NCBI GenBank assembly: GCA_030429505.1
Contig: JAUIFI010000001.1
Coordinates: forward strand, 210,001 to 242,000
Reading direction: 5' to 3'
Origin: Candidatus Saccharimonadota bacterium
GTDB lineage: Bacteria; Patescibacteriota; Gracilibacteria; UBA4473
Length of the DNA: 32,000 bases
Below are positions 2,603 to 30,832 of the stretch, in pieces (within the stretch, counting starts at the first letter, position 1; each line of letters starts with the position of its first letter). The notes beneath the pieces were generated by a model. It was given only the letters and a program-made list of their open reading frames with translations, was not told the DNA's origin and ran no database searches. Position numbers and translations under genes: made by a program.

Positions 2603-4465
2603 ATGAAAAATTACACCAAAATAGTTATCGGCACATTCCTTGTGACTCTTCTATGGGGGAGTTTTGATCAAGTATCAGCTCAATCAAATCTTGGCGGTTG
2701 GTCATACTGGAAAAACTGGATTCGTTCACATTATTCTCCTTCTTACAGACGCACAGACAATCCTGTGGTCAGAGAAAGGTACTTGCAGAGTCGAAGACAA
2801 TGGCCGTACTCTCGGGTTGAACGACCAGAACAAAGTACATATTTCTCAGAAAATACTAGACGAATTCGTTTTAGCCCTACCAGAAACACAGAACCTCAAA
2901 ATTTAGCTTCACAATACGAAAAACTTCAAAATACATTTTACTCATCTAATCGTGACTTGGTTGTATCAGCTATCCCTACTACTCGGAATCAACCTGTCAC
3001 GATTATCGATAATACCGTAATCCCTGTATTTGAAATAGGAGTAAATAATAGAGCCCAAACGTCTCAGTCTCAATTCAGAGAAGCTATATTACTTCGAACC
3101 ATGACCTTTCAAATGGTAACTAATTCTGGTATCGCTCAAAATCCTGAAAATTTTGATCTTGTCATCAATGGAGACCAAACATTTTCATTTGAGAGCAATG
3201 GAAGCGTCACTATTGATTTTCTCAATGCAAGAATCGCTCAAGGAGAAGACCTTTCCTTCTCGGTAGGTCTCAAAGTTAACGATCCAGAGAGTACTCCAAA
3301 CCAACGAGGGGCGTTAAAACTACGAATAGTACGAGCCTCTGGCGTCACAGAAATCAGAGAAACTGACGTCAATCCATTTTTATCTGGATCTACTATTTCT
3401 CCTTTCATAACTTTTGAACCTACGATTCAAACCACCGGGACGCCAGTTTTATCGAGCCAGACTACGAGGCGGATTTTGGGAGAAAACTTATCAGCTGGTG
3501 AAAAAGCATACGTTCTAGGAGTAGATCTATCAGCTCATTTTGATGATATGGTCGTCGAAGAAGTAACCGTTCGAGATATCTTAGGAAATAATATCGATGC
3601 CAGTACCAGAGGAATAACTGCCCTTGATGGACAAACTGGAACCGTTCTTGGGAGCGCTTTCTTTTCAGGCGGACAAGCCCATATAAAATTTTTCCGAAAT
3701 CTGGAAATTCCACGAGAGACCGATCGAAGCATTATCTTTCAGATCCAAGTTGCTAGTCGGGTTCCTGACGGAAATAATCAGTTTAAACTCGATATTCAAC
3801 CCGCTGACTTAATCGTAACTAGTTTAAGCAATGGACGAGAAGTCCCAGACGCCAATAAAAACTTTTCCATAGATGCAGAAACATTTCAGATTGTCCAATC
3901 TGGAGGATCAATTGGAATATTTCCCTCTTCACAACCAAATGGATTCGCTGTAATCCCATCGACCCATACACAAGTATATAGGCTCAGTATTGCCAACCCC
4001 AGCCAACAAAATATTTCACTTGGACGAATTTCACTTGATGTTGCCTTGGAAGGATTAGATTTTCCTAGTGGCAGATCAGCAGATGACTTCGATCTCAGGG
4101 AGATCCAAGGAAGCCGAGAAATAAGCGGAACCCAGTTTATTCCAACGTTAGGTGCGGGAAATACTGTGAGATTCGATGCCAGTAATGAAATTCCTATTCC
4201 ACGAAATTCAAATGTGGAATTTGTTCTCAAACTTCGTATGGAAGATGTGCCTGGAAGTAACCCAGGATCAGATGCCGTATCAGTTCGTGTTTTGGGAGAT
4301 AATACTTTTGGGAAAGATACCCTCACAGGATTGAGGTTATCAGGAAAAAATTTCATCTGGTCTGACCGTTCTGCCCAGCCTCATACTACTACATCTTCTG
4401 ATTGGTTGTCCGGTTATCTCGTGCAAGGATTACCGAGTAATACCGTCGTAATTCGTAGGCAGTAA
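2603..4465 (+). CDS. Large secreted protein (620 aa): signal peptide, Arg/Tyr/Trp-rich linker, then about three beta-rich (Ig/sandwich-like) modules
   Basis: MKNYTKIVIGTFLVTLLWGSFDQVSAQS is a signal peptide. Residues ~30-100 are R/Y/S/P-rich (SYRRTDNPVVRERYLQSRRQWPYSRVERPE...). The rest shows alternating-polarity beta patterns that recur three times, e.g. NFDLVINGDQTFSFESNGSVTIDF, IIFQIQVASRVP and VEFVLKLRMEDVP. I recognised no enzyme motif. Confidence 0.8.
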   Translation: MKNYTKIVIGTFLVTLLWGSFDQVSAQSNLGGWSYWKNWIRSHYSPSYRRTDNPVVRERYLQSRRQWPYSRVERPEQSTYFSENTRRIRFSPTRNTEPQNLASQYEKLQNTFYSSNRDLVVSAIPTTRNQPVTIIDNTVIPVFEIGVNNRAQTSQSQFREAILLRTMTFQMVTNSGIAQNPENFDLVINGDQTFSFESNGSVTIDFLNARIAQGEDLSFSVGLKVNDPESTPNQRGALKLRIVRASGVTEIRETDVNPFLSGSTISPFITFEPTIQTTGTPVLSSQTTRRILGENLSAGEKAYVLGVDLSAHFDDMVVEEVTVRDILGNNIDASTRGITALDGQTGTVLGSAFFSGGQAHIKFFRNLEIPRETDRSIIFQIQVASRVPDGNNQFKLDIQPADLIVTSLSNGREVPDANKNFSIDAETFQIVQSGGSIGIFPSSQPNGFAVIPSTHTQVYRLSIANPSQQNISLGRISLDVALEGLDFPSGRSADDFDLREIQGSREISGTQFIPTLGAGNTVRFDASNEIPIPRNSNVEFVLKLRMEDVPGSNPGSDAVSVRVLGDNTFGKDTLTGLRLSGKNFIWSDRSAQPHTTTSSDWLSGYLVQGLPSNTVVIRRQ

Positions 4466-4479
4466 ATACTTTTTACGCT

Positions 4480-4542
4480 CCCTCTTTGAGGGGATAAATT
4501 ACCAGAAGAATACACACATCCTAACCTACCCCCAAAAGGGGG
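4480..4542 (+). other. Two short GC-only hairpins (CCCTC-ttt-GAGGG and CCCCC-aaaa-GGGGG) downstream of the 620-aa gene
   Basis: The stems are at 4480-4492 and 4529-4542. They are conspicuous GC islands in AT-rich DNA. Neither is followed by a T-run, so they are not canonical terminators. Confidence 0.4.
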
Positions 4543-4565
4543 ATGAAAGCTCTTTCTGGGAAATA

Positions 4566-4596
4566 TTGATAAAAAAATACTTCCTTATGTTATAAT
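4566..4596 (+). promoter_or_regulatory. Promoter with an extended -10 (TGT-TATAAT) upstream of the small membrane protein gene
   Basis: TTGATA at 4566-4571, TGT at 4588-4590 and a perfect TATAAT at 4591-4596. The spacer is 19 bp, which is long, but an extended -10 lessens the need for a -35. This implies a ~100-nt leader before ATG 4707. Confidence 0.55.
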
Positions 4597-4706
4597 GAAG
4601 CGGCAGGGTGCGTGGGAAGTTTATCTCATTCTCAATGTTCTTTGAGCTGACCATCCAGTTCCAGATAGCCTTCATTATTGAAAGAACTAGAATAGGAGAA
4701 AAGACT

Positions 4707-4952
4707 ATGCTTAGGTCAAAGCTTATATCAATACTTGATTCAATGTTTGGGTCAATAAGAGTAAATCAATGGATTTGCCTTATTGCGGGATTATCTTTCG
4801 TTAATATGTCTTTTTTAGACTTCCGTACTTCTTGGGGAGGTATACTTGGAATAGTATTCATGGGAATAGGATACATACTTGCGATTTCTGCTACTTTCTT
4901 GATCTGGGAACTGTTCAAAAGGAAAACTGGATGTTCCCATGGAAACGGTTAA
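4707..4952 (+). CDS. Small membrane protein (81 aa, 2 predicted TM helices)
   Basis: The ATG at 4707 is preceded by AGGAGA at ~4694-4699. Hydrophobic segments are WICLIAGLSFV and GGILGIVFMGIGYILAISATFLIW. A strong terminator follows. The upstream GTG at 4608 lies only ~12 nt after the -10 element and is unlikely to be the start. Confidence 0.6.
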   Translation: MLRSKLISILDSMFGSIRVNQWICLIAGLSFVNMSFLDFRTSWGGILGIVFMGIGYILAISATFLIWELFKRKTGCSHGNG

Positions 4953-4964
4953 GAACAAAACAGC

Positions 4965-5001
4965 AAACAGCAGCGAGAGGTAAAACTCGTTGCTGTTTTT
5001 A
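4965..5001 (+). terminator. Rho-independent terminator, possibly shared with the convergent minus-strand gene
   Basis: AAACAGCAGCGAG-aggtaaaa-CTCGTTGCTGTTT forms a 13-bp stem with one G.U pair, followed by a T-run to 5001. The reverse strand also leaves a T-rich tail. Confidence 0.8.
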
Positions 5002-5120
5002 TTATAAAAACAAGGCTTCTTCCTCAGAGATCCTTCGTTCCTCAGTCTCGCTGTACAGCGGGGTCGGGATATCAAAAACGGAAGAGGAGGGATAGATATC
5101 TGTTCCTGTGCTTTTTTATC

Positions 5121-6239
5121 TTATCGCCGTTCTAAAAACTCACAGAAACCTAAAATTTCCTGTTTTTGAACTTTTTTCTTGAGTGACTGGACTGTATCTC
5201 CTTTCTCCACCAAAACTTTCCTTTGTAGAACCGCTTCTCCAGCATCAATCTGAGCGGTTATCCTATGAATCGTACAACCAGTATACCGCTCTTCATATTC
5301 CAAAACTTTTTGATGAACTTCTGTGTCAGCTAGCCCTGCAAATTTCGGCAGTAAAGATGGATAGACATTTAAAGTCGTTGTTCCAAATTGTTCACAATAC
5401 AAAGGCGAAAGAATCCGCATCCATCCCAAAAGAAGGACGAAATCAGGATTATGCTCCCGTAAAATATTAATCAACGCTCGATCATACTCTTCCTGACTTT
5501 CTCCATCTCTCGGTTCAACTACTTCAATATTAGTAATACCGGCTTTTTTAGCTTTTTCCAATGCCTCACAATCAGGCTTATCTGTTACAAAGACCGTAAA
5601 TTCAACATTTGGAATTCGACCACGTTTCTGTGCATCCAGTAATCCCTGAAATGTCGTTCCAGCTTGAGAAGCAAAGACGGCAATACGTTTTTTTGAAGGG
5701 GCTGAAGGGAGGAGTGACTGAAGCGTCGTCACAAGTTTTTTCGCTTCAAGAGAACTATCTCCTTTGAGATCAGGAGTAAGCTCTATCTCGGCAATCGCCT
5801 GATAAATGCCCTTTCGTTGTTGCCACATCTGATCAATTTCTTGTGCGAGAGATAGAGAAGGATTAATCCTCATTCGCTTTTTTTCTTTTTCACTTCCAAG
5901 AAGAAATGAACGAACATCTTTAAAATCAGGGTTGAGCCAAGCAAAAGTACCTGTTTTTTTCAAATTTTGTAGATTTTTGGAATTTTCAATAGTACCGTCA
6001 CCAGTAGATAAGATTCCGGAAAAATTACGACAAAGATCATGCGCGACTCTTTGTTCTATTTCTCGAAACACCTGCCAGCCGTGTTTCTCAACAAAATCAA
6101 GTAAAGGTTCTTCAATCAGAAACTCAATTTCTTCATCGATATCAGCAAAAGGAAGATTATTAAGGTGTGCAAGTGCTCTCCCAAAATGAGATTTCCCTGA
6201 TCCTCTAAATCCTATCAAAACGATATTTGATTTCTTCAC
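5121..6239 (-). CDS. Fusion protein: N-terminal shikimate-kinase-like P-loop kinase domain plus C-terminal PurN-like (GAR) formyltransferase domain with an atypical active site
   Basis: N-terminus: IVLIGFRGSGKSHFGRALA (Walker A), FADIDEEIE and STGDG, matching the AroK layout. C-terminus: RIAVFASQAGTTFQGLLDA, DFVLLLGWMRILSP, LNVYPSLLPKFAG and GCTIHRITAQIDAGEAVLQ, which align with E. coli PurN (VVVLAGFMRILSP, LNIHPSLLPKYPG, VHFVTDELDGGPVILQ). The PurN His108 position is Tyr here. Confidence 0.8.
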   Translation of the reverse strand: MKKSNIVLIGFRGSGKSHFGRALAHLNNLPFADIDEEIEFLIEEPLLDFVEKHGWQVFREIEQRVAHDLCRNFSGILSTGDGTIENSKNLQNLKKTGTFAWLNPDFKDVRSFLLGSEKEKKRMRINPSLSLAQEIDQMWQQRKGIYQAIAEIELTPDLKGDSSLEAKKLVTTLQSLLPSAPSKKRIAVFASQAGTTFQGLLDAQKRGRIPNVEFTVFVTDKPDCEALEKAKKAGITNIEVVEPRDGESQEEYDRALINILREHNPDFVLLLGWMRILSPLYCEQFGTTTLNVYPSLLPKFAGLADTEVHQKVLEYEERYTGCTIHRITAQIDAGEAVLQRKVLVEKGDTVQSLKKKVQKQEILGFCEFLERR

Positions 6240-23399: not shown

Positions 23400-25700
23400 C
23401 TAAAGCAAAAACTTCGCCGGTTTCATGCCTTCAATTTGTTGGACAACCTTTAAATCTCCTGTGCGAATCTTTCCAACATATAAATCTTTGATATCTTTGC
23501 CTTGTTCTATAAATCGTTCTATCTCTTGATTCCCACGAAAATATAAAGAATCCTTGGTAAAAACTTGTTTCTGGCTAGTGTCAGTCAATCCACGTTTTAC
23601 TTTGACACAAATTTTCCAGGCTCGATTATCTGAAAAATCATATGTGTCTTTCATGAAGTGAAAAAGCTCACAAAATCCCATCTTTTTTCCTAAATACAAT
23701 GCCACAATAAAATATGCGGGTTTTAGAAATTTATATCCCAAATCAAGTTTAAGCTGATTTTGATTCCAAATAGCCAACCCCTCTTCGGTTTTAAGATACC
23801 CTGCAGTACCCCGTTCAAATATACGAAAAGGTTGTGATTTTCCATTTTCGAAACGAAATATATGTGTTCCTATCTCATGAACCAAAACTGCCTGCAATCG
23901 ATTAGCACGAAATCGAGCACCTTTTTTCAAAAGAATGACATGACGTTTCGTTATCTGAATATCAGAAATTGCATTGCTGAGAAATTTGATTTTCCAATGT
24001 GAGAGTTTGTAGCGTTTTAAAAACTGTTCAATCGCTTTAATCGCAGCGTTCGTATCCAATAAATCACCTTCTTCTGGACGATTATATTCTCTATTTTGTT
24101 TCAAGAATTTCAGAGCTGATCGATATGTATGTTCACTCACATCACCAAAAAGCTGGGCAGAAACAGATCCAAACGCTTTACTCCCAATTGATTGAAGCAA
24201 ATCAAGCTTTATTCCCAGTTCTTCGATTTTTTTCGCAAAAAGAGGGTACATAACATGGTTCACTTCAGGAATTTTTTTAAGCTCCCTTCGTATATGAGTA
24301 AAAGGGGTATCACACATCCGATATAAAAATTGAGGAGAAAATTCAGGATTTTCTAAAAATAGAGCTTTCTGTTCCAAAATATTCTGGGGATTGATAAAAG
24401 ATAAGAGATGAACTTTTTCATCCAATTCACAAACTTTTTCATCAACACTATGCATCATTTTCTCATCAAGTTGTGAAGTCACCACTTCCGGAGCCAAAAA
24501 TTCTACTTTTTTCGCAGGATCAATGTAAAAATCAGTTAAAAATTTGCCAGATAAAATCAAATCACAATCTTTTAAAACTCCTTTTTTAACCGGTATTTTA
24601 AGACGTTTCCCCTGAAGCGTTATATCGAGCATTGCTCCCTGGTAAAATTGAGTGCGAACCAAGTTCGTATCACACATCAAATCAACTTTTGCTTTCAGAA
24701 TATGAGGTTTCTCAGTATGTAATATTACCGACTCCATCATGCCAAGAACTGGTTTAAGTGGCAACGATTCATCGGTAGAAGGTTTGCGTGAAAAAAGCTT
24801 TTTGGCTATATCGACTCCTTCCTCGGAAGTCATAACTTTAAGATCATGAATTTTTTCGAGTCTTTTTTTGAGAGGAGCTTTATTTGCTATCTGGATTTTG
24901 GTACCAGATAAAGCATTAATTTCCAATACTTTTACTCCAGGTTTTGTCACTACAAGATCTATTCCTAGGTACCCAATACCAGAAAAATTCTGCACCTGAG
25001 AAGCTGTAAGTAAAATTTCATCCCAAAAAGGAATTTGAAACCCTTTAATGCGGTGTCCGTTTGGCATTTTTTGAATTCTACTAAAATTTTGAGCTCCGAA
25101 TGTAGTTTGACCGCTACCAATATCAATACCCACACCTATAGCCCCTAACTCCATATTAGCCTTTCCTTCTGAATCATAGGTTGGAATACGTATCATGGCC
25201 ATAACTGGGACCAAATTAAACACAATAACTCGAATATCCGGAAGTCCCACACTACTCAGATGCCGAAAGTCTGGATGTGGTTCTAATCGTTCTTCAAAAA
25301 GAATCGTATCATGAATTCCTGCGGGAGAGTACTTTCCATCCAAAATTTCAATACTATGTCGGTAAAGTCCCTGCACATCAAATTTTTTTCCAGACGGGCT
25401 AACCCAAGAATGTTTTTGTTTTTTTTCGAGTACCAATATACCTTCTCCTCCAGATCCCTGATTAGGTTTAACTGCAAAACAAGGGGGAAGTGTACTAAAA
25501 AAATCAGATGTAAGTTGTCTATGATTAACAACGTGATGATAGAGTTTTGCGACACTTATTCCTCGAGATTCAAGAAAATGCTTAGAGAAAATCTTATCCC
25601 GAGAAAATTTCCTCTGAGATAGGGAGTTATAGCGCATCACATATTGGAGATTGCGAGCGTTGAGTCCCAGTATGTCTTTCGCTTTAGAAAAAGAAAACAT
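23400..25700 (-). CDS. Tri-domain fusion: RimK-related ATP-grasp amino-acid ligase (alpha-L-glutamate-ligase-like) + degenerate retropepsin-like (RimK-associated 'Zn_protease') module + MATCAP/DUF1704 QEGLA-family metallocarboxypeptidase-like domain
   Basis: Residues 1-290: ILGLNARNLQYVMRYN, FAVKPNQGSGGEGILV, GLPDIRVIVFNLVPVMAMIRIPT..SEGKANMELGAIGVGIDIGSG, GYLGIDLVV and VLEINALSGTKIQIAN match my recollection of the TIGR02291/ATPgrasp_ST family. Residues ~318-396: ILKAKVDLMCDTNL...LILSGKFLTDFYIDP resembles the PF05618 pattern (AKIDTGA...LLGR..L....LVDP). Residues ~430-766: HEIGTH (HExxxH, nt 23862-23879) followed by GYLKTEEGLA (QEGLA-like, nt 23772-23789), as in DUF1704/MATCAP. Confidence 0.8.
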   Translation of the reverse strand: MFSFSKAKDILGLNARNLQYVMRYNSLSQRKFSRDKIFSKHFLESRGISVAKLYHHVVNHRQLTSDFFSTLPPCFAVKPNQGSGGEGILVLEKKQKHSWVSPSGKKFDVQGLYRHSIEILDGKYSPAGIHDTILFEERLEPHPDFRHLSSVGLPDIRVIVFNLVPVMAMIRIPTYDSEGKANMELGAIGVGIDIGSGQTTFGAQNFSRIQKMPNGHRIKGFQIPFWDEILLTASQVQNFSGIGYLGIDLVVTKPGVKVLEINALSGTKIQIANKAPLKKRLEKIHDLKVMTSEEGVDIAKKLFSRKPSTDESLPLKPVLGMMESVILHTEKPHILKAKVDLMCDTNLVRTQFYQGAMLDITLQGKRLKIPVKKGVLKDCDLILSGKFLTDFYIDPAKKVEFLAPEVVTSQLDEKMMHSVDEKVCELDEKVHLLSFINPQNILEQKALFLENPEFSPQFLYRMCDTPFTHIRRELKKIPEVNHVMYPLFAKKIEELGIKLDLLQSIGSKAFGSVSAQLFGDVSEHTYRSALKFLKQNREYNRPEEGDLLDTNAAIKAIEQFLKRYKLSHWKIKFLSNAISDIQITKRHVILLKKGARFRANRLQAVLVHEIGTHIFRFENGKSQPFRIFERGTAGYLKTEEGLAIWNQNQLKLDLGYKFLKPAYFIVALYLGKKMGFCELFHFMKDTYDFSDNRAWKICVKVKRGLTDTSQKQVFTKDSLYFRGNQEIERFIEQGKDIKDLYVGKIRTGDLKVVQQIEGMKPAKFLL

Positions 25701-25756
25701 AACGACACGATAGGAAGTAGGAAAATAAAAAAGACATTAATTGGGGATAGAGTTCA

Positions 25757-27244
25757 TTATTCTTGAGCATCTTCTTGAAAAAGGGTTCGAAATTTAACGT
25801 ACTCACTAAGTCGTAACCCCGTAAATTTTCCGAGCCAAATAATTCCTAATATAGGAAGTACTATAATTTCAGGAGCTGACAAAATAGCGCTTTCTAGCCA
25901 TCCCCACGTTACTAAAAAATAACTCACAAAACTCACCAGCATAGTTTCTCCTGTTGAAATAAAAGCATACTTCATACCTCCGCTGGATTGCGCAGATAAG
26001 AATTTTTCTGATAGAGAAGCCATCACCAACATTGGAAAGATCGTCAGTGCCAAATTTGTAGAGACATCTACGTAAACCGCCACCGCTAGTACCAAGAAAA
26101 ACGAAAGTGCTAAAGCACTCAAAAGCAAACTTACCCGAGGAATATAAAGTAACTCTACTTTTTCAAACAAAAGCCGAATCAAATAACTCACCAGCATTAC
26201 TACTAAAAAGACAATCAGACCAAAATAAAACCCGAGCATCAAAAAACTCACCGTCAACATCAAAGGCGCATAAACCCCAAGTGTAAAGATACCTATAAAC
26301 TGACGAAAAAAAGCAATGGTAAAGGCAATAAAAGGTACCGCCAAAAGCAGATAAATAATATTTTGGGAAATACCACTTACCGCAAAATAGGTCATCAATC
26401 TTGAGAGAGGAAGCCATTCCGAAGTAGCAGTGCGTTCGTCAATAATACGATATTCAATAGCTCTTCGCCTTAATTTTTCAACCCCTTCGTCTCGAAAAAG
26501 AGGACTAAGGGCTTCAGAACGGGTCAAAAGTATGAAATGAGGCTTTAAAAGAGAAAAAATAGGTTGAATAAGCTTTGCTGCTTTTAATAAAGAAGTATCC
26601 AAAATCTGTACCCACATCTTTTCCTTTAAATTAAATTTATTTTCCTCAGATAGCTTTTGCCAAAATTGACTAAAGGCTTGAAGCTGAGTTACAGACTCCG
26701 TATAAAAAATAATCATATCAGCATCTTTAAAAGCTTGGATATTTTCTTGTACTTTACGAATCAATTCTTCTTCAGCTGAAAATCCAGTTTTGGTCTCCTC
26801 AGACACGATAGCTTTGAGCAAGATACCATAATGAGCTGCTTGGCTCACCAAAGAGTCCTTCATTTCATTGGAGTCTAGAACTAAAACCCCCTGTTTTTCA
26901 AAAACAACAATGTCTTGAAAAATTTCAGATTGATTTTCTCCTTGCTTAATTTCCAAGAGCACTTTATAGGTACCGGGTTTTTCATACATATGACCGATTT
27001 CTTGTCCCCACTTAGGATGTGTTCCATCCCCCATATCCCATTTGTAAACTGCCTGAGGGTATTCATCGAACAAAGTACTATCGGTTCCTGAAAAAAAAGC
27101 TTTTGATCCCAACTCTACAAATACTTCAGTAGTGATCACCGGAATTATTTTTTCTTCAGACGGCTCAAATACTTCTGAAACTTCTTCAGTTTGAGCATGT
27201 ACTGTACTAATGAGAAGAAATATGGAAAAGAAGTATTTTTTCAT
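25757..27244 (-). CDS. Membrane protein: signal peptide + PKD domain + uncharacterised ectodomain + C-terminal 7TM module of the type normally fused to an inactive transglutaminase (7TM_transglut-like)
   Basis: MKKYFFSIFLLISTVHAQ (start at M7; the TTG at 27262 or ATG at 27253 are alternatives). PKD signature YKWDMGDGTHPKWGQEIGHMYEKPGTYKVLLEI. The C-terminal ~220 aa hold about 7 hydrophobic helices and end in LGKFTGLRLSEYVKFR, which resembles the G.yTGLRL.E..RF terminus of that 7TM family. It lies 56 bp upstream of, and on the same strand as, the ATP-grasp fusion. Confidence 0.75.
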   Translation of the reverse strand: MKKYFFSIFLLISTVHAQTEEVSEVFEPSEEKIIPVITTEVFVELGSKAFFSGTDSTLFDEYPQAVYKWDMGDGTHPKWGQEIGHMYEKPGTYKVLLEIKQGENQSEIFQDIVVFEKQGVLVLDSNEMKDSLVSQAAHYGILLKAIVSEETKTGFSAEEELIRKVQENIQAFKDADMIIFYTESVTQLQAFSQFWQKLSEENKFNLKEKMWVQILDTSLLKAAKLIQPIFSLLKPHFILLTRSEALSPLFRDEGVEKLRRRAIEYRIIDERTATSEWLPLSRLMTYFAVSGISQNIIYLLLAVPFIAFTIAFFRQFIGIFTLGVYAPLMLTVSFLMLGFYFGLIVFLVVMLVSYLIRLLFEKVELLYIPRVSLLLSALALSFFLVLAVAVYVDVSTNLALTIFPMLVMASLSEKFLSAQSSGGMKYAFISTGETMLVSFVSYFLVTWGWLESAILSAPEIIVLPILGIIWLGKFTGLRLSEYVKFRTLFQEDAQE

Positions 27245-27340
27245 ACTCGACATTATGCTCAAAAACCCTCAAGAATCAAGCATTAAAAAAGAAAAAGATA
27301 CTTCCATTGAAAATGCTCCCCAACCACATACAATGCAAAC

Positions 27341-27772
27341 ATGAATGTTGAAATTTTTCGCATTGACTCCACTATTCCACTTCCAAAATATGAGACCAAA
27401 GGGTCCTTTGCCTTTGATTTTCTAGCACGAGAACAAACCATTATTGCTCCAAAGTCTCTGGCATTGATCCCCGGAAACGTTATTATCAAATGTCCCGCTG
27501 ATTTAGCTCTACTGATTTTGCCTCGTTCTTCTATGCCTCGTAAAAAATCACTCGTCTTTCCGCACTCTATCGGACTTATAGATGCTGATTATCATGGAGA
27601 AAAAGATGAAATTATGATTCAAGTATTTAATATCTCAGATGAAAGAGTCACAATCGAAAAAGGCGAACGCATCGCTCAAGGACTTTTTGTCAAAACTCAA
27701 TCAGTAAGCTTCACAGAAACTCACTCACCTGCTGAAATTTCTCGAGGAGGATTTGGCAGTACAGGAAATTAA
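27341..27772 (+). CDS. dut: dUTP diphosphatase (trimeric dUTPase)
   Basis: GSFAFDF, PRSSM, GLIDADYHGE (motif 3), ERIAQ, and the C-terminal RGGFGSTG (motif 5). Confidence 0.9.
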   Translation: MNVEIFRIDSTIPLPKYETKGSFAFDFLAREQTIIAPKSLALIPGNVIIKCPADLALLILPRSSMPRKKSLVFPHSIGLIDADYHGEKDEIMIQVFNISDERVTIEKGERIAQGLFVKTQSVSFTETHSPAEISRGGFGSTGN

Positions 27773-27773
27773 A

Positions 27774-28670
27774 ATGGATCTCAAAAAAATCTTTATCGAC
27801 TTTCTAAACCGGGAAAAACTTCTCGATAAAAAACTACTCCTTTCTATTTCAGGAGGTGTTGATTCACGTGTTTTATTTCACGTAGCTTTAGATTGCGTCA
27901 TTCCCACCAACATAGCAGTTTTTCACCTAAACCATAGAACGAGCACTTCTTCAGACAAAGCTATGAAATTCGTTCAAACACTATGCCAAGAATCAGAAAT
28001 TACTTTCTATGGTTTCGAAATAAAAAAAACACCCACATCTGATCGAGAAAATTTTTGGCGACAAGAGCGAAAGCGTTTAGCTAAAAAAGCACAGGAAGAA
28101 TATAGTGCTGATAGGATTTTAACGGCCCATCATGCTACAGACCTCGTAGAGACGATGCTTTTTCGTCTAGTAAAAGGAGCAGGAGTATCCGGTCTTTCTC
28201 CTTTTGATATATCGACAAAACCTTTCTGGGAAGTTCCCAAATCAGTTATTGAAAACTACGCCAAAGAAAAAAAGTTGGAGTTTGTCTTTGACCAAACCAA
28301 TGAAGACACGATCTTTGAGCGAAATCTTCTCCGACACAAGGTCATTCCACACCTCCGAAAAATCACACCAAATTTAGAAAAGGTTTTTGCTTCGGAATCA
28401 AAAATTTTTTCCGAAACAAACGATTTCCTTCAAGCTGAAGCTAAAAAGATTCAAAAAAATAGAAAATTATCCCTCGAAACCTTTACAAATCTCGCTCCTA
28501 TAATTCAAAAAGAATTTCTCCGTTCACTCTCTCCCAATGCCACTAGCTTCAATGATATAGCTGATTGTCTAAGGTGGTTACTCGGAAGCCCAAAAGGCAA
28601 TTCACAAAAAAAGTTGGGAGATGTAATTTTACAAATACAAAATAACCACATTACTTGGAAAAAGAAGTAG
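27774..28670 (+). CDS. tilS: tRNA(Ile)-lysidine synthase
   Basis: PP-loop LLLSISGGVDSRVLFH, LNHRTS, and AHHATDLVETMLFRLVKGAG. The ATG at 27774 follows the dut stop by 1 nt, so it is preferred over the in-dut TTG at 27753. Confidence 0.85.
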   Translation: MDLKKIFIDFLNREKLLDKKLLLSISGGVDSRVLFHVALDCVIPTNIAVFHLNHRTSTSSDKAMKFVQTLCQESEITFYGFEIKKTPTSDRENFWRQERKRLAKKAQEEYSADRILTAHHATDLVETMLFRLVKGAGVSGLSPFDISTKPFWEVPKSVIENYAKEKKLEFVFDQTNEDTIFERNLLRHKVIPHLRKITPNLEKVFASESKIFSETNDFLQAEAKKIQKNRKLSLETFTNLAPIIQKEFLRSLSPNATSFNDIADCLRWLLGSPKGNSQKKLGDVILQIQNNHITWKKK

Positions 28671-28754: not shown

Positions 28755-29690
28755 ATGAAAAATCTATTCTCATCACATTCAATGTTCGAGCAAAACACAA
28801 AATTTGTGTTTCAGAACTCAGGTCCGAAAAAACTAGTACCATTAAGACCAGATAGCCATTACAGAGAAGATGGCTTATTAAAAGATGAACATTACTACCT
28901 TAAAGGAGAAAAGGAAGTGAACAGAACGGAAGATCAGCGAAGAATAGATGAAGCACAAAGATTAGAAAAAGTAAATCCTCAACCTGCATACAGCGAAGTA
29001 AAGCAAGAGTTCGATCGTGTTGCGAATTTAGTTCAAACACTCGAAGCAAACGATCCAGGAGTAAAAAGAAGATTGATTGAGTTGCCAGCTCAAAGTAAAC
29101 TCAGAAATACACGAGTTTACTGCGAAGTTTATAACGGATCAACTTCTGTTTCATTCCATGTAAAAGAACTTACCACCGATGATCAAGGACATCCTCTGGA
29201 AAAAGATATTGCACTCTATCGACTCTATAAATCAACACATGATGATACATATGGACTTAATTCTGAAGTAGAAACAGTAATATTTGGTAGACAAAGAAAG
29301 ATGACAAGTCCAGATTGGGGAGTATTTGCAGTAAAGCGGGAAGCTAAATTTTCACAAGGGGAAAGATTAGGAATTGAAAGTGATCTCCTAGGAATGGATG
29401 TGTACTTGGATGATGCAGAAAATGCCGTACGAGAGATGCACGGGAATCTTAAAAAAGCCCCTGAAGAGTCAGCACGAAATACAATCGCATTTGACTTACG
29501 AAAACGAACACAATCTCTTCCATTTACCAATGAGGTAAAAAATGAGGTAGAAAAAGCTATTAATAGCATTCAAGGATATGAGAATGAGTTAGCAAATCCT
29601 CGTTTGAGTGATGATGAAAAAAGATTCTTACAAAAACTTATGAAACGCCAGATAGAATACGTTGATGGGCAAATAGAAAAAGCAAGGTAA
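28755..29690 (+). CDS. Hypothetical protein (311 aa), no signal peptide, charged/helical termini; orphan transcription unit
   Basis: An intact ORF bracketed by a strong promoter and a strong terminator. I recognised no family motif. Confidence 0.6.
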   Translation: MKNLFSSHSMFEQNTKFVFQNSGPKKLVPLRPDSHYREDGLLKDEHYYLKGEKEVNRTEDQRRIDEAQRLEKVNPQPAYSEVKQEFDRVANLVQTLEANDPGVKRRLIELPAQSKLRNTRVYCEVYNGSTSVSFHVKELTTDDQGHPLEKDIALYRLYKSTHDDTYGLNSEVETVIFGRQRKMTSPDWGVFAVKREAKFSQGERLGIESDLLGMDVYLDDAENAVREMHGNLKKAPEESARNTIAFDLRKRTQSLPFTNEVKNEVEKAINSIQGYENELANPRLSDDEKRFLQKLMKRQIEYVDGQIEKAR

Positions 29691-30055: not shown

Positions 30056-30832
30056 CTAAACTTTTTCCTTCACAAGCTCGCCAATTAAAATCAATCTATT
30101 TTTGTTTGTCCCTACCGGTGTACATGTCATAAGTGTAATGATGGAAAGGTTTTCCGGCTGATCTAAAACCTCCGTAGCCGTTGGAGGAACGACTTCTTTT
30201 GCTTTAATGCGATATACATATTTTCGTCCTTCCCAAAAAACATGAATAATCTCACCTTCATGAACCTCATGAAGCAAGGCAAACATATCTTTATACCGTC
30301 CCGGATCCCAAGGATAGTACGAAGAATGTCCAGTCACAAAGAAATTCCCATTTGTTCCTGGTGCATGAGACACTGGATGGACAACGGCTCCATTACGCAA
30401 ACCTTCCTGAATATTAGATTCTAGTTGTTGCCAGTTTTTGTGATGAGGGACATTAACGAGCGGTACATTTTTTTGAATCCGAGGAATATATATACGATTA
30501 TCAGAAGGATATATATCCATCTTAGCAAAAGTTTGCTTCGCCTGATTTTTGGGCTTTAAATCTTTATTACGAAAAAGTTGTCGATCAGTCTTAATTTTTT
30601 CCAGTGTCAAAGGTTCGGCGGATTCGGAAGTCCCAAAATTATCTGCCAGCGAAACTACAGAAGCTTTGAGATTATTAAATTTAAAAGCAGTGATCTCAGC
30701 ATAAGCTGAGTAGTTAAGTCCCACATGCGCTGCTCCCCAGAAAAAACCAACACTCCCTGCAAAAAGTAGTGCATCCTTCCACAAAGCTCGTTTTTTCTTC
30801 TGCTTCAAACCAAACTGATTTTGTTCATTCAT
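30056..30832 (-). CDS. Sortase-family transpeptidase with an N-terminal membrane anchor
   Basis: TM anchor ALLFAGSVGFFWGAAHV. Catalytic His region NFFVTGHSSY, TLxTC-type motif IITLMTCTPVG, and the downstream Arg in NKNRLILIG. Confidence 0.85.
   Translation of the reverse strand: MNEQNQFGLKQKKKRALWKDALLFAGSVGFFWGAAHVGLNYSAYAEITAFKFNNLKASVVSLADNFGTSESAEPLTLEKIKTDRQLFRNKDLKPKNQAKQTFAKMDIYPSDNRIYIPRIQKNVPLVNVPHHKNWQQLESNIQEGLRNGAVVHPVSHAPGTNGNFFVTGHSSYYPWDPGRYKDMFALLHEVHEGEIIHVFWEGRKYVYRIKAKEVVPPTATEVLDQPENLSIITLMTCTPVGTNKNRLILIGELVKEKV

Follow-up and report, generated by a model that had tools for sequence, protein, structure and literature searches.

A seven-transmembrane protein with an exchanged ectodomain and an acidic carboxy-terminus, encoded beside an ATP-grasp/MATCAP fusion in a bacterium of the Candidate Phyla Radiation

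The DNA examined here, a 32,000-nucleotide stretch of contig JAUIFI010000001.1 from a Candidatus Saccharimonadota bacterium of the Candidate Phyla Radiation (CPR), hereafter the window, carries on its reverse strand a gene for a seven-transmembrane (7TM) protein and, directly downstream, a gene for an ATP-grasp fusion protein. Judged from sequence, the pair is a condensed and rewired CPR version of the rloABC triad of 7TM, ATP-grasp, and retropepsin genes. The 7TM gene and its product are laid out as follows, with residue numbers, here and throughout, those of the 501-aa open reading frame (ORF); the models are AlphaFold2 (AF2) predictions.

25757-27262, (-) strand: gene for the PKD / alpha-beta / 7TM membrane protein, with its stop codon at 25757-25759
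27194-27244, (-) strand: predicted signal peptide MKKYFFSIFLLISTVHA, from the sequence and an N-terminal helix in the AF2 model
26900-27130, (-) strand: PKD domain (Ig-like beta-sandwich), residues ~45-121, from Pfam, Foldseek, and PDB sequence matches
26387-26899, (-) strand: extracytoplasmic alpha/beta domain, here called MID, residues ~122-292, with alternating beta-alpha units
25829-26386, (-) strand: seven-helix module PF14402 (7TM_transglut), residues ~293-478, from Pfam, NCBIfam, AF2, and hhalign
25760-25828, (-) strand: predicted cytoplasmic C-terminal region, residues 479-501, a KFTGLRLSEYVKFR helix followed by an acidic tail

The 501 codons of the ORF are counted from a TTG at 27262. 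The database copy of the protein (P0001), which is 100% identical, has 495 aa and begins at M7, a residue nearly invariant in the homologue alignment; the true start is therefore probably the ATG at 27244, which would give a product of 495 aa. A hydrophobic N-terminus equivalent to the signal peptide is present in all aligned homologues, and cleavage would fall between VHA and QT. The strings that the initial annotation had quoted from this protein (YKWDMGDGT, GTYKVLLEI, and LGKFTGLRLSEYVKFR) are all found in the ORF translation, and the layout that it had read from them, a signal peptide and a PKD domain followed by an unassigned domain of ~170 aa, is borne out by Pfam and by the AF2 model. 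Both of the profile families that it had named, PKD and PF14402, match in hidden Markov model (HMM) searches. The PKD region is recognized at residues 45-113 (PKD_4, E 4e-10; PKD, E 2e-8; PF00801/PF18911), and its fold matches the PKD domains of the collagenases ColG and ColH in Foldseek with E 7e-7 and a root-mean-square deviation of 1.6-1.8 Å. By comparison with these, residues ~115-295 gave zero Pfam matches. MID has conserved motifs (FAQFWQKLS and ILLTRPEA) and two invariant residues, G146 and K215, and when modelled alone it reaches an AF2 predicted local distance difference test (pLDDT) score of 86.8. Foldseek returned only generic Rossmann/flavodoxin-like structures (TM score ≤ 0.5, ~10% identity), and we therefore treat MID as an unclassified domain. 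The seven-helix module matches PF14402 over residues 299-494 (E 9.9e-26; 91.2 bits against a cut-off of 25; model positions 52-247/248).

The AF2 model of the whole protein, built from 46 homologues (pLDDT 84.7), resolves a signal-peptide helix, a beta-sandwich (48-121), an alpha/beta domain (123-275), and a helical bundle (285-496). Seven hydrophobic segments in the 7TM module, together with the positive-inside rule, give an N-out/C-in orientation: among the 46 homologues, mean K+R content is ~8.5 in the predicted cytoplasmic loops and tail, vs. ~0.8 outside. The protein is thus predicted to have seven transmembrane helices with the ectodomain outside, as the initial annotation had supposed, and the C-terminus inside. 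Of the invariant polar residues, those predicted to face the cytoplasm are R320-Q321, R363, S418-E419-K420-F421, and Q425, together with T481-G-L-R484, E487, and F491 of the C-terminal helix; P464-E465 lies on the outer face. Directly after the conserved KFTGLRLSEYVKFR helix, nucleotides 25760-25786 encode the acidic tail TLFQEDAQE-COOH. In the predicted topology, the conserved 7TM surface and the acidic carboxy-terminus face the cytoplasm, where the ligase/peptidase enzyme described below would reside.

To place the protein within its family, we compared its parts separately with those of canonical relatives. Alignment of the CPR and non-CPR 7TM modules by hhalign gives a probability of 99.9% (E 1e-33), and Pfam and NCBIfam likewise identify a genuine PF14402/RloB-type module. 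For the CPR ectodomain against the transglutaminase ectodomain, the hhalign probability is 0.1%, and on this basis we rejected the possibility that MID is a diverged transglutaminase. Pfam found no transglutaminase ectodomain (PF14400/PF01841) in residues 1-298, whereas the non-CPR relatives at loci L063 and L065 do carry PF14400. By sequence comparison, then, the 7TM protein is shown to be an RloB-family (PF14402) module with a replaced ectodomain, and the swap that the initial annotation had proposed holds as a replacement rather than a divergence.

The ectodomain appears to be exchangeable across the family. An exhaustive search with the 7TM part yielded 1420 representatives at 50% identity; within the best 150 of these, PKD plus MID occurs in 81, MID alone in 15 (several of them fragments), and a bare or short N-terminus in ~44, the remainder carrying Transglut_core/Transglut_i_TM or extra domains. 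Forms with a short low-complexity ectodomain are also present. Since bare forms and forms with other ectodomains both exist, the ectodomain is modular, and the modularity that had been suggested from the window alone extends to PKD plus alpha/beta, transglutaminase, short low-complexity, and bare variants. The PKD/alpha-beta/7TM architecture is common to at least 120 clusters at 90% identity, and the close relatives in the genome-contig scan come from Gracilibacteria, Peribacteria, Peregrinibacteria, Kerfeldbacteria, and other Patescibacteria. We found no literature on the PKD plus alpha/beta variant of the 7TM family.

The partner gene at 23400-25700 on the (-) strand, which confirms the same-strand neighbor with a 56-bp gap described in the initial annotation, encodes a fusion of 766 aa with three recognizable domains:

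25701-25756, (-) strand: intergenic spacer of 56 bp separating the 7TM gene from the ATP-grasp fusion gene
24786-25655, (-) strand: RloC-like ATP-grasp domain, residues 16-305, PF14397 with E 3.8e-56
24366-24770, (-) strand: degenerate retropepsin-like domain (RimB/RloA, PF05618-type), residues ~311-445, from iterative HMM searches and hhalign
23433-24344, (-) strand: MATCAP/DUF1704 metallocarboxypeptidase domain, residues 453-756, PF08014 with E 9.4e-41, TIGR02421 ('QEGLA')

The ATP-grasp domain belongs with ATPgrasp_ST (TIGR02291, 230 bits, below the cut-off of 314), and its Mg-binding motif, LEINA, is intact. The 135-aa segment that follows, at first sight a linker, has no direct Pfam match of its own; used as the seed of an iterative HMM search, it recovers the C-terminal domains of sister-clade ATP-grasp proteins, which carry AKIDTGA ... 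IIGRRDL..FLVDP and match PF05618 (Zn_protease), and hhalign relates it to these DTG-bearing domains with a probability of 98.2% (E 5e-14). The catalytic KIDTGA of the retropepsin has become KVDLMC in the window (AKVDLMC), and the motif is lost in 47 of 47 relatives with a fused MATCAP, which indicates that the retropepsin-like domain of the fusion is catalytically dead. The MATCAP domain, by comparison, keeps both HEIGTH (HExxxH) and TEEGLA, which are retained in 41 of 43 fused homologues; HExxxH and EEG are the metal-binding motifs of the MATCAP/TMCP carboxypeptidases, enzymes that trim polyglutamate chains and cut C-terminal Tyr or Glu from the acidic tails of tubulin (PMC10499314). The fusion has neither a signal peptide nor a transmembrane segment and would therefore act on the cytoplasmic side, in agreement with the earlier placement of ligase and peptidase on that face of the membrane. 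Because the linker is a degenerate retropepsin, all three components of the rloABC triad, and MATCAP in addition, are encoded by the two genes; the initial annotation had overlooked the retropepsin component, which here lies inside the ATP-grasp fusion. The literature yielded no description of a ligase/dead-retropepsin/MATCAP fusion, and the PADLOC defense-system models match neither the 7TM protein nor its partner.

We scanned genome contigs (75 loci) and, with representatives lacking an acidic tail as seeds, metagenomes (80 further CPR loci). A same-strand ATP-grasp gene lies directly 3' of the 7TM gene in 50 of 56 evaluable close relatives, usually at a distance of 0-60 bp, and the same is true of most CPR loci in the sister clade and of 13 of the 15 loci from outside CPR. 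The adjacency, on which the earlier proposal depended, is thus conserved from close relatives to distant CPR, cyanobacterial, and proteobacterial loci. In proteobacterial and cyanobacterial loci (L063, L065), the canonical triad is found in the order Zn_protease (retropepsin), Transglut_i_TM-7TM, ATP-grasp, which is the rloABC arrangement. No ATP-grasp gene was found downstream in L007, L010, L011, L012, L018, and L034 within the DNA examined, 8 kb in L011, L018, and L034 and ~1-2.7 kb in L007, L010, and L012. These loci (the first five forming one subclade) keep the PKD/alpha-beta/7TM protein and its -E/-EE tail, and their ATP-grasp partner may be encoded elsewhere or lost. In six other loci (L096, L139, L140, L144, L145, and L148), the nearest same-strand ATP-grasp match, a candidate ligase, starts ~1.4 kb downstream of the 7TM gene and scores only E 1e-6 to 1e-16.

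The genes that recur around the pair in CPR loci (tilS, dut, and argS) are unrelated housekeeping genes on the opposite strand; a larger conserved operon was rejected on these grounds, and the functional unit is taken to be the two-gene pair. The order tilS-dut-7TM-ATPgrasp-argS, with the flanks on opposite strands, is kept in about one-third of close relatives. In the window, the dUTPase and TilS genes (27341-28670, (+) strand) diverge from the 7TM gene and overlap each other by 20 bp (27753-27772). Promoter and terminator scans around the gene pair performed no better than shuffled sequence.

We then compared the carboxy-termini of the 7TM proteins, a feature that the initial annotation had passed over and that is both invariant within the close relatives and covariant with the type of peptidase. 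The protein of the window ends in ...KFRTLFQEDAQE. In the complete close homologues, 118 of 119 end in E and 65 of 119 in EE. The 49 distinct tails of the E-clade (group A), 10-14 residues long and with a mean net charge of -2.0, all have E as their last residue, with E before it in 39 and Q in 8; the residues ahead of the terminus vary. The tails of the sister CPR clade are short and basic (...KK, ...KS), with a mean charge of +2.8. Across CPR loci, a tail ending in E accompanies a dead retropepsin and a fused MATCAP in 47 of 48 cases, while all 58 evaluable loci with a basic, non-E tail have an ATP-grasp enzyme whose DTG retropepsin is active and to which no MATCAP is fused. No literature on the covarying -EE tail of the 7TM protein was found.

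In a neighbor-joining tree, the main E-tail group forms one clade and hence amounts to one contrast. A second, separate clade, whose members have a short low-complexity ectodomain, are 44-52% identical to one another, and fall nearer the basic-tail group, offers another, represented by the following loci:

L158: retropepsin motif NTG (predicted dead), separate MATCAP gene, 7TM tail ...IEEE
L160: retropepsin motif HTG (predicted dead), separate MATCAP gene, 7TM tail ...DQEE
L164: retropepsin motif NTG (predicted dead), separate active RimB gene and no MATCAP, 7TM tail ...IIES
L166: retropepsin motif DTG (predicted active), no MATCAP, 7TM tail ...VFRS

On these sequences, an acidic tail with a MATCAP-only complement arose at least twice, with different active-site lesions in the retropepsin. 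In L078-L082, L095, L117, and L118, the DTG retropepsin appears active, a separate MATCAP gene lies one to two genes downstream, and the tail is basic; these loci may represent a stage between the retropepsin-only and the MATCAP-only condition. Two further observations concern gene content. A gene for a four-helix membrane protein, PF04020 (Phage_holin_4_2), lies directly upstream on the same strand in the short-ectodomain subclade (L158, 4619-4981; L159, 2157-2519; L164, 3614-3970) and is absent from the window; its product may be an extra component in that subclade. At L165, two more ATP-grasp genes (ATP-grasp_4/LAL_C2 and RimK-like, 4420-6181) lie 3' of the 7TM, ATP-grasp, and MATCAP genes, which suggests that this organism has a larger peptide-ligase cluster.

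The closest known counterpart is the RloABC system of Pseudomonas aeruginosa. The initial annotation had stated that no member of the system was characterized, which is outdated: a genetic study of P. aeruginosa RloABC appeared in mBio in 2025 (PMC12239564), and an NCBIfam model for RloB exists. That work connects RloABC with osmotic tolerance, resistance to antibiotics, biofilm formation, and the morphology of cells, ties RloA, RloB, and RloC to one process, finds a role for RloB in hypo-osmotic stress tolerance that is epistatic to the Rlo proteases, and places 96% of RloB matches in Proteobacteria (PMC12239564). RloB itself (PF14400 plus PF14402; NF052267) is an inactive transglutaminase fused to a 7TM module. 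The window protein shares the homologous 7TM module and aligns with NF052267 over model positions 309-507, but it scores 47 bits against a cut-off of 900, in the 7TM part only, and has the PKD and alpha/beta domains in place of the transglutaminase-like ectodomain. As in rloABC, the 7TM gene stands directly upstream of an RloC-like ATPgrasp_ST gene and a retropepsin-type component is present; unlike in rloABC, that component is a dead domain within a cytoplasmic ligase rather than a separate secreted enzyme, a MATCAP carboxypeptidase has been added, the 7TM protein has an extended acidic -EE tail, and the host is a CPR bacterium. The sister CPR clade stands nearer: it has the same 7TM family, gene order, and ATP-grasp enzyme, and often the same PKD plus alpha/beta ectodomain, but its retropepsin keeps KIDTGA, MATCAP is not fused (a separate MATCAP gene follows downstream in some loci), and its 7TM C-terminus is short and basic where that of the window is acidic. 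To our knowledge, no biochemical activity is known for any member of the RloABC family.

Two known cycles of C-terminal modification resemble parts of the pair. RimK and RimB, which act on ribosomal protein S6 (RpsF), likewise combine an ATP-grasp enzyme of the alpha-L-glutamate-ligase type with a retropepsin-like peptidase in the cytoplasm, and S6, like the candidate acceptor here, ends in ...EE. The ATP-grasp domain of the window, however, falls in the ATPgrasp_ST/TIGR02291 branch (RimK Pfam, 17 bits, below the cut-off of 21), the candidate substrate would be a membrane protein encoded next door, and the inactive retropepsin appears to have been functionally replaced by MATCAP. The tubulin cycle of TTL/TTLL ligases and MATCAP/TMCP peptidases shares with the window a true PF08014 peptidase (HExxxH, EEG) alongside an ATP-grasp ligase and, by analogy, a candidate target whose tail ends in EE. 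It differs in that a single bacterial polypeptide of the window combines both enzymes, with a ligase from outside the TTL family (relatives give only weak PF03133 matches), and in that the candidate target is a 7TM protein.

We propose, tentatively, that the -E/-EE tail of the 7TM protein is both the acceptor of the ligase and the substrate of the carboxypeptidase, a reading that we regard as possible, if somewhat short of an even chance. In this scheme, the ligase/peptidase fusion would dock on the cytoplasmic face of the 7TM protein, whose own C-terminal -EE tail would serve as the acceptor; the ATP-grasp domain would extend the tail at its terminal carboxylate by amino acids, glutamate being the likeliest; and the MATCAP domain would take the added residues off again. 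The modification state of the tail would then set the activity of the membrane module, in transport or signaling, with the surface PKD and alpha/beta domains serving as a dispensable, exchangeable accessory for binding or sensing. RimK/RimB on S6 (...EE) and TTL-TTLL/MATCAP on tubulin (...EE[Y]) would be analogous cases. Besides these analogies, the proposal draws on the conserved gene pairing, the dead retropepsin beside an intact MATCAP, the tie between E-ending tails and peptidase type in two clades, and the P. aeruginosa genetics that join RloA, RloB, and RloC (PMC12239564). A glutamylation cycle of this kind would call for a ligase and a peptidase with intact motifs, which the fusion has (LEINA; HEIGTH and TEEGLA), and for an acceptor with a predicted cytoplasmic acidic tail ending in Glu, which 118 of the 119 homologues provide. 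A more ambitious version, in which the pair is a bacterial counterpart of the tubulin tail code, with the fused ligase/MATCAP reversibly extending and trimming -EE and so switching a surface-exposed (PKD plus alpha/beta) 7TM machine on and off in CPR bacteria, we consider doubtful.

Several observations weigh against the tail as acceptor. The ligase family is one without any biochemically established substrate. In Pseudomonas, the protease is found in the periplasm, a location that suits an exported product no less than a substrate tail in the cytoplasm (PMC12239564). Because the main E-tail/MATCAP group is a single clade, the independent contrasts are few (about two). Loci L078-L082, L095, and L165 combine MATCAP and a D-T-G/S retropepsin with non-acidic tails, so that the presence of MATCAP alone does not predict the tail. 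Finally, the six close relatives without an adjacent ATP-grasp gene nonetheless retain the E-tail.

The pair might instead serve export, with the ATP-grasp enzyme making a small peptide such as poly-alpha-glutamate, the peptidase setting its length, and the 7TM protein translocating it; the PKD and alpha/beta ectodomain would hold, present, or process the peptide at the surface, and the acidic tail would mimic or guide the product. RimK can polymerize poly-alpha-glutamate, and the polar residues R320/Q321, R363, SEKF, Q425, and PE resemble those of a transporter or enzyme more than those of a passive scaffold. Bare 7TM forms without an ectodomain are still paired with the ligase. The P. aeruginosa proteases are secreted enzymes, and the phenotype of strains lacking them is suppressed when RloB or RloC is lost as well (PMC12239564), which fits a toxic exported product. 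On the other hand, both peptidase domains in CPR form one cytoplasmic polypeptide with the ligase, so that degradation would precede export; none of the solved transporters resembles the 7TM fold in Foldseek and PDB sequence searches; and the switch of the 7TM C-terminus from basic to -EE upon replacement of the retropepsin by MATCAP is left unexplained. We therefore hold export to be an unlikely account, though one of some weight. A sensory role, in which the ectodomain senses an envelope or host-surface cue and the 7TM module allosterically switches a docked ligase/peptidase acting on another cytoplasmic protein such as S6, would make the acidic tail a docking element or an autoinhibitory pseudosubstrate. 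Such a tail would fit the substrate groove of MATCAP, the cytoplasmic face and C-terminal helix are conserved, exchangeable ectodomains are typical of sensors, and RimK/RimB offers a precedent (cited in PMC12239564); yet many relatives have no ectodomain at all, the neighborhood holds no second conserved substrate gene, and there is no signaling output domain, all of which makes this role improbable in our estimate.

The acidic C-terminus could also be incidental and have no role in the system, arising from translational coupling (a purine-rich ribosome-binding site of the downstream gene), from composition, or from shared ancestry. Many gene gaps are indeed 0-15 bp, and the main E-tail group is monophyletic. 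However, the terminal Glu codon is GAA, which is not Shine-Dalgarno-like, in 82 of 98 cases (84%), and the tail persists at gene gaps of 56-464 bp and in the six loci without an adjacent partner; an origin of the -EE tail as a ribosome-binding-site artifact was rejected on these two grounds. The sister clade, moreover, has equally tight gaps yet basic tails, 49 distinct tails all retain the final E although they differ in length and in the residues before it, and the E-tail pattern recurs in the second clade, so that an incidental origin is very improbable.

Farther along the window, a gene at 30056-30832 on the (-) strand encodes a sortase-domain protein with an N-terminal hydrophobic anchor. 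Its presence is consistent with a monoderm (Gram-positive-like) envelope, which would leave the PKD and alpha/beta ectodomain exposed on the cell surface or wall. Between tilS and the sortase gene, a 311-aa ORF (28755-29690, (+) strand) is rich in charged residues and has no Pfam match.

The CPR variants amount to a natural experiment on the RloABC family, one in which the ectodomain can be swapped or lost and the protease can be cytoplasmic and joined to the ligase; the arrival of MATCAP in place of the retropepsin goes with an invariant -EE carboxy-terminus on the membrane partner. The system links bacteria to the enzyme family responsible for tubulin detyrosination and deglutamylation in eukaryotes, and it points to a conserved protein of the CPR cell surface that is abundant (at least 120 clusters at 90% identity), has a novel alpha/beta domain, and is possibly involved in envelope or host-contact physiology. 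If the proposed role of the tail is correct, the 7TM protein would become the first substrate of RimK/TTL-like C-terminal ligation to be a membrane protein. The RloABC family as a whole would then be open to biochemical study, and the antagonism between MATCAP and ligase would seem to have begun in prokaryotes.

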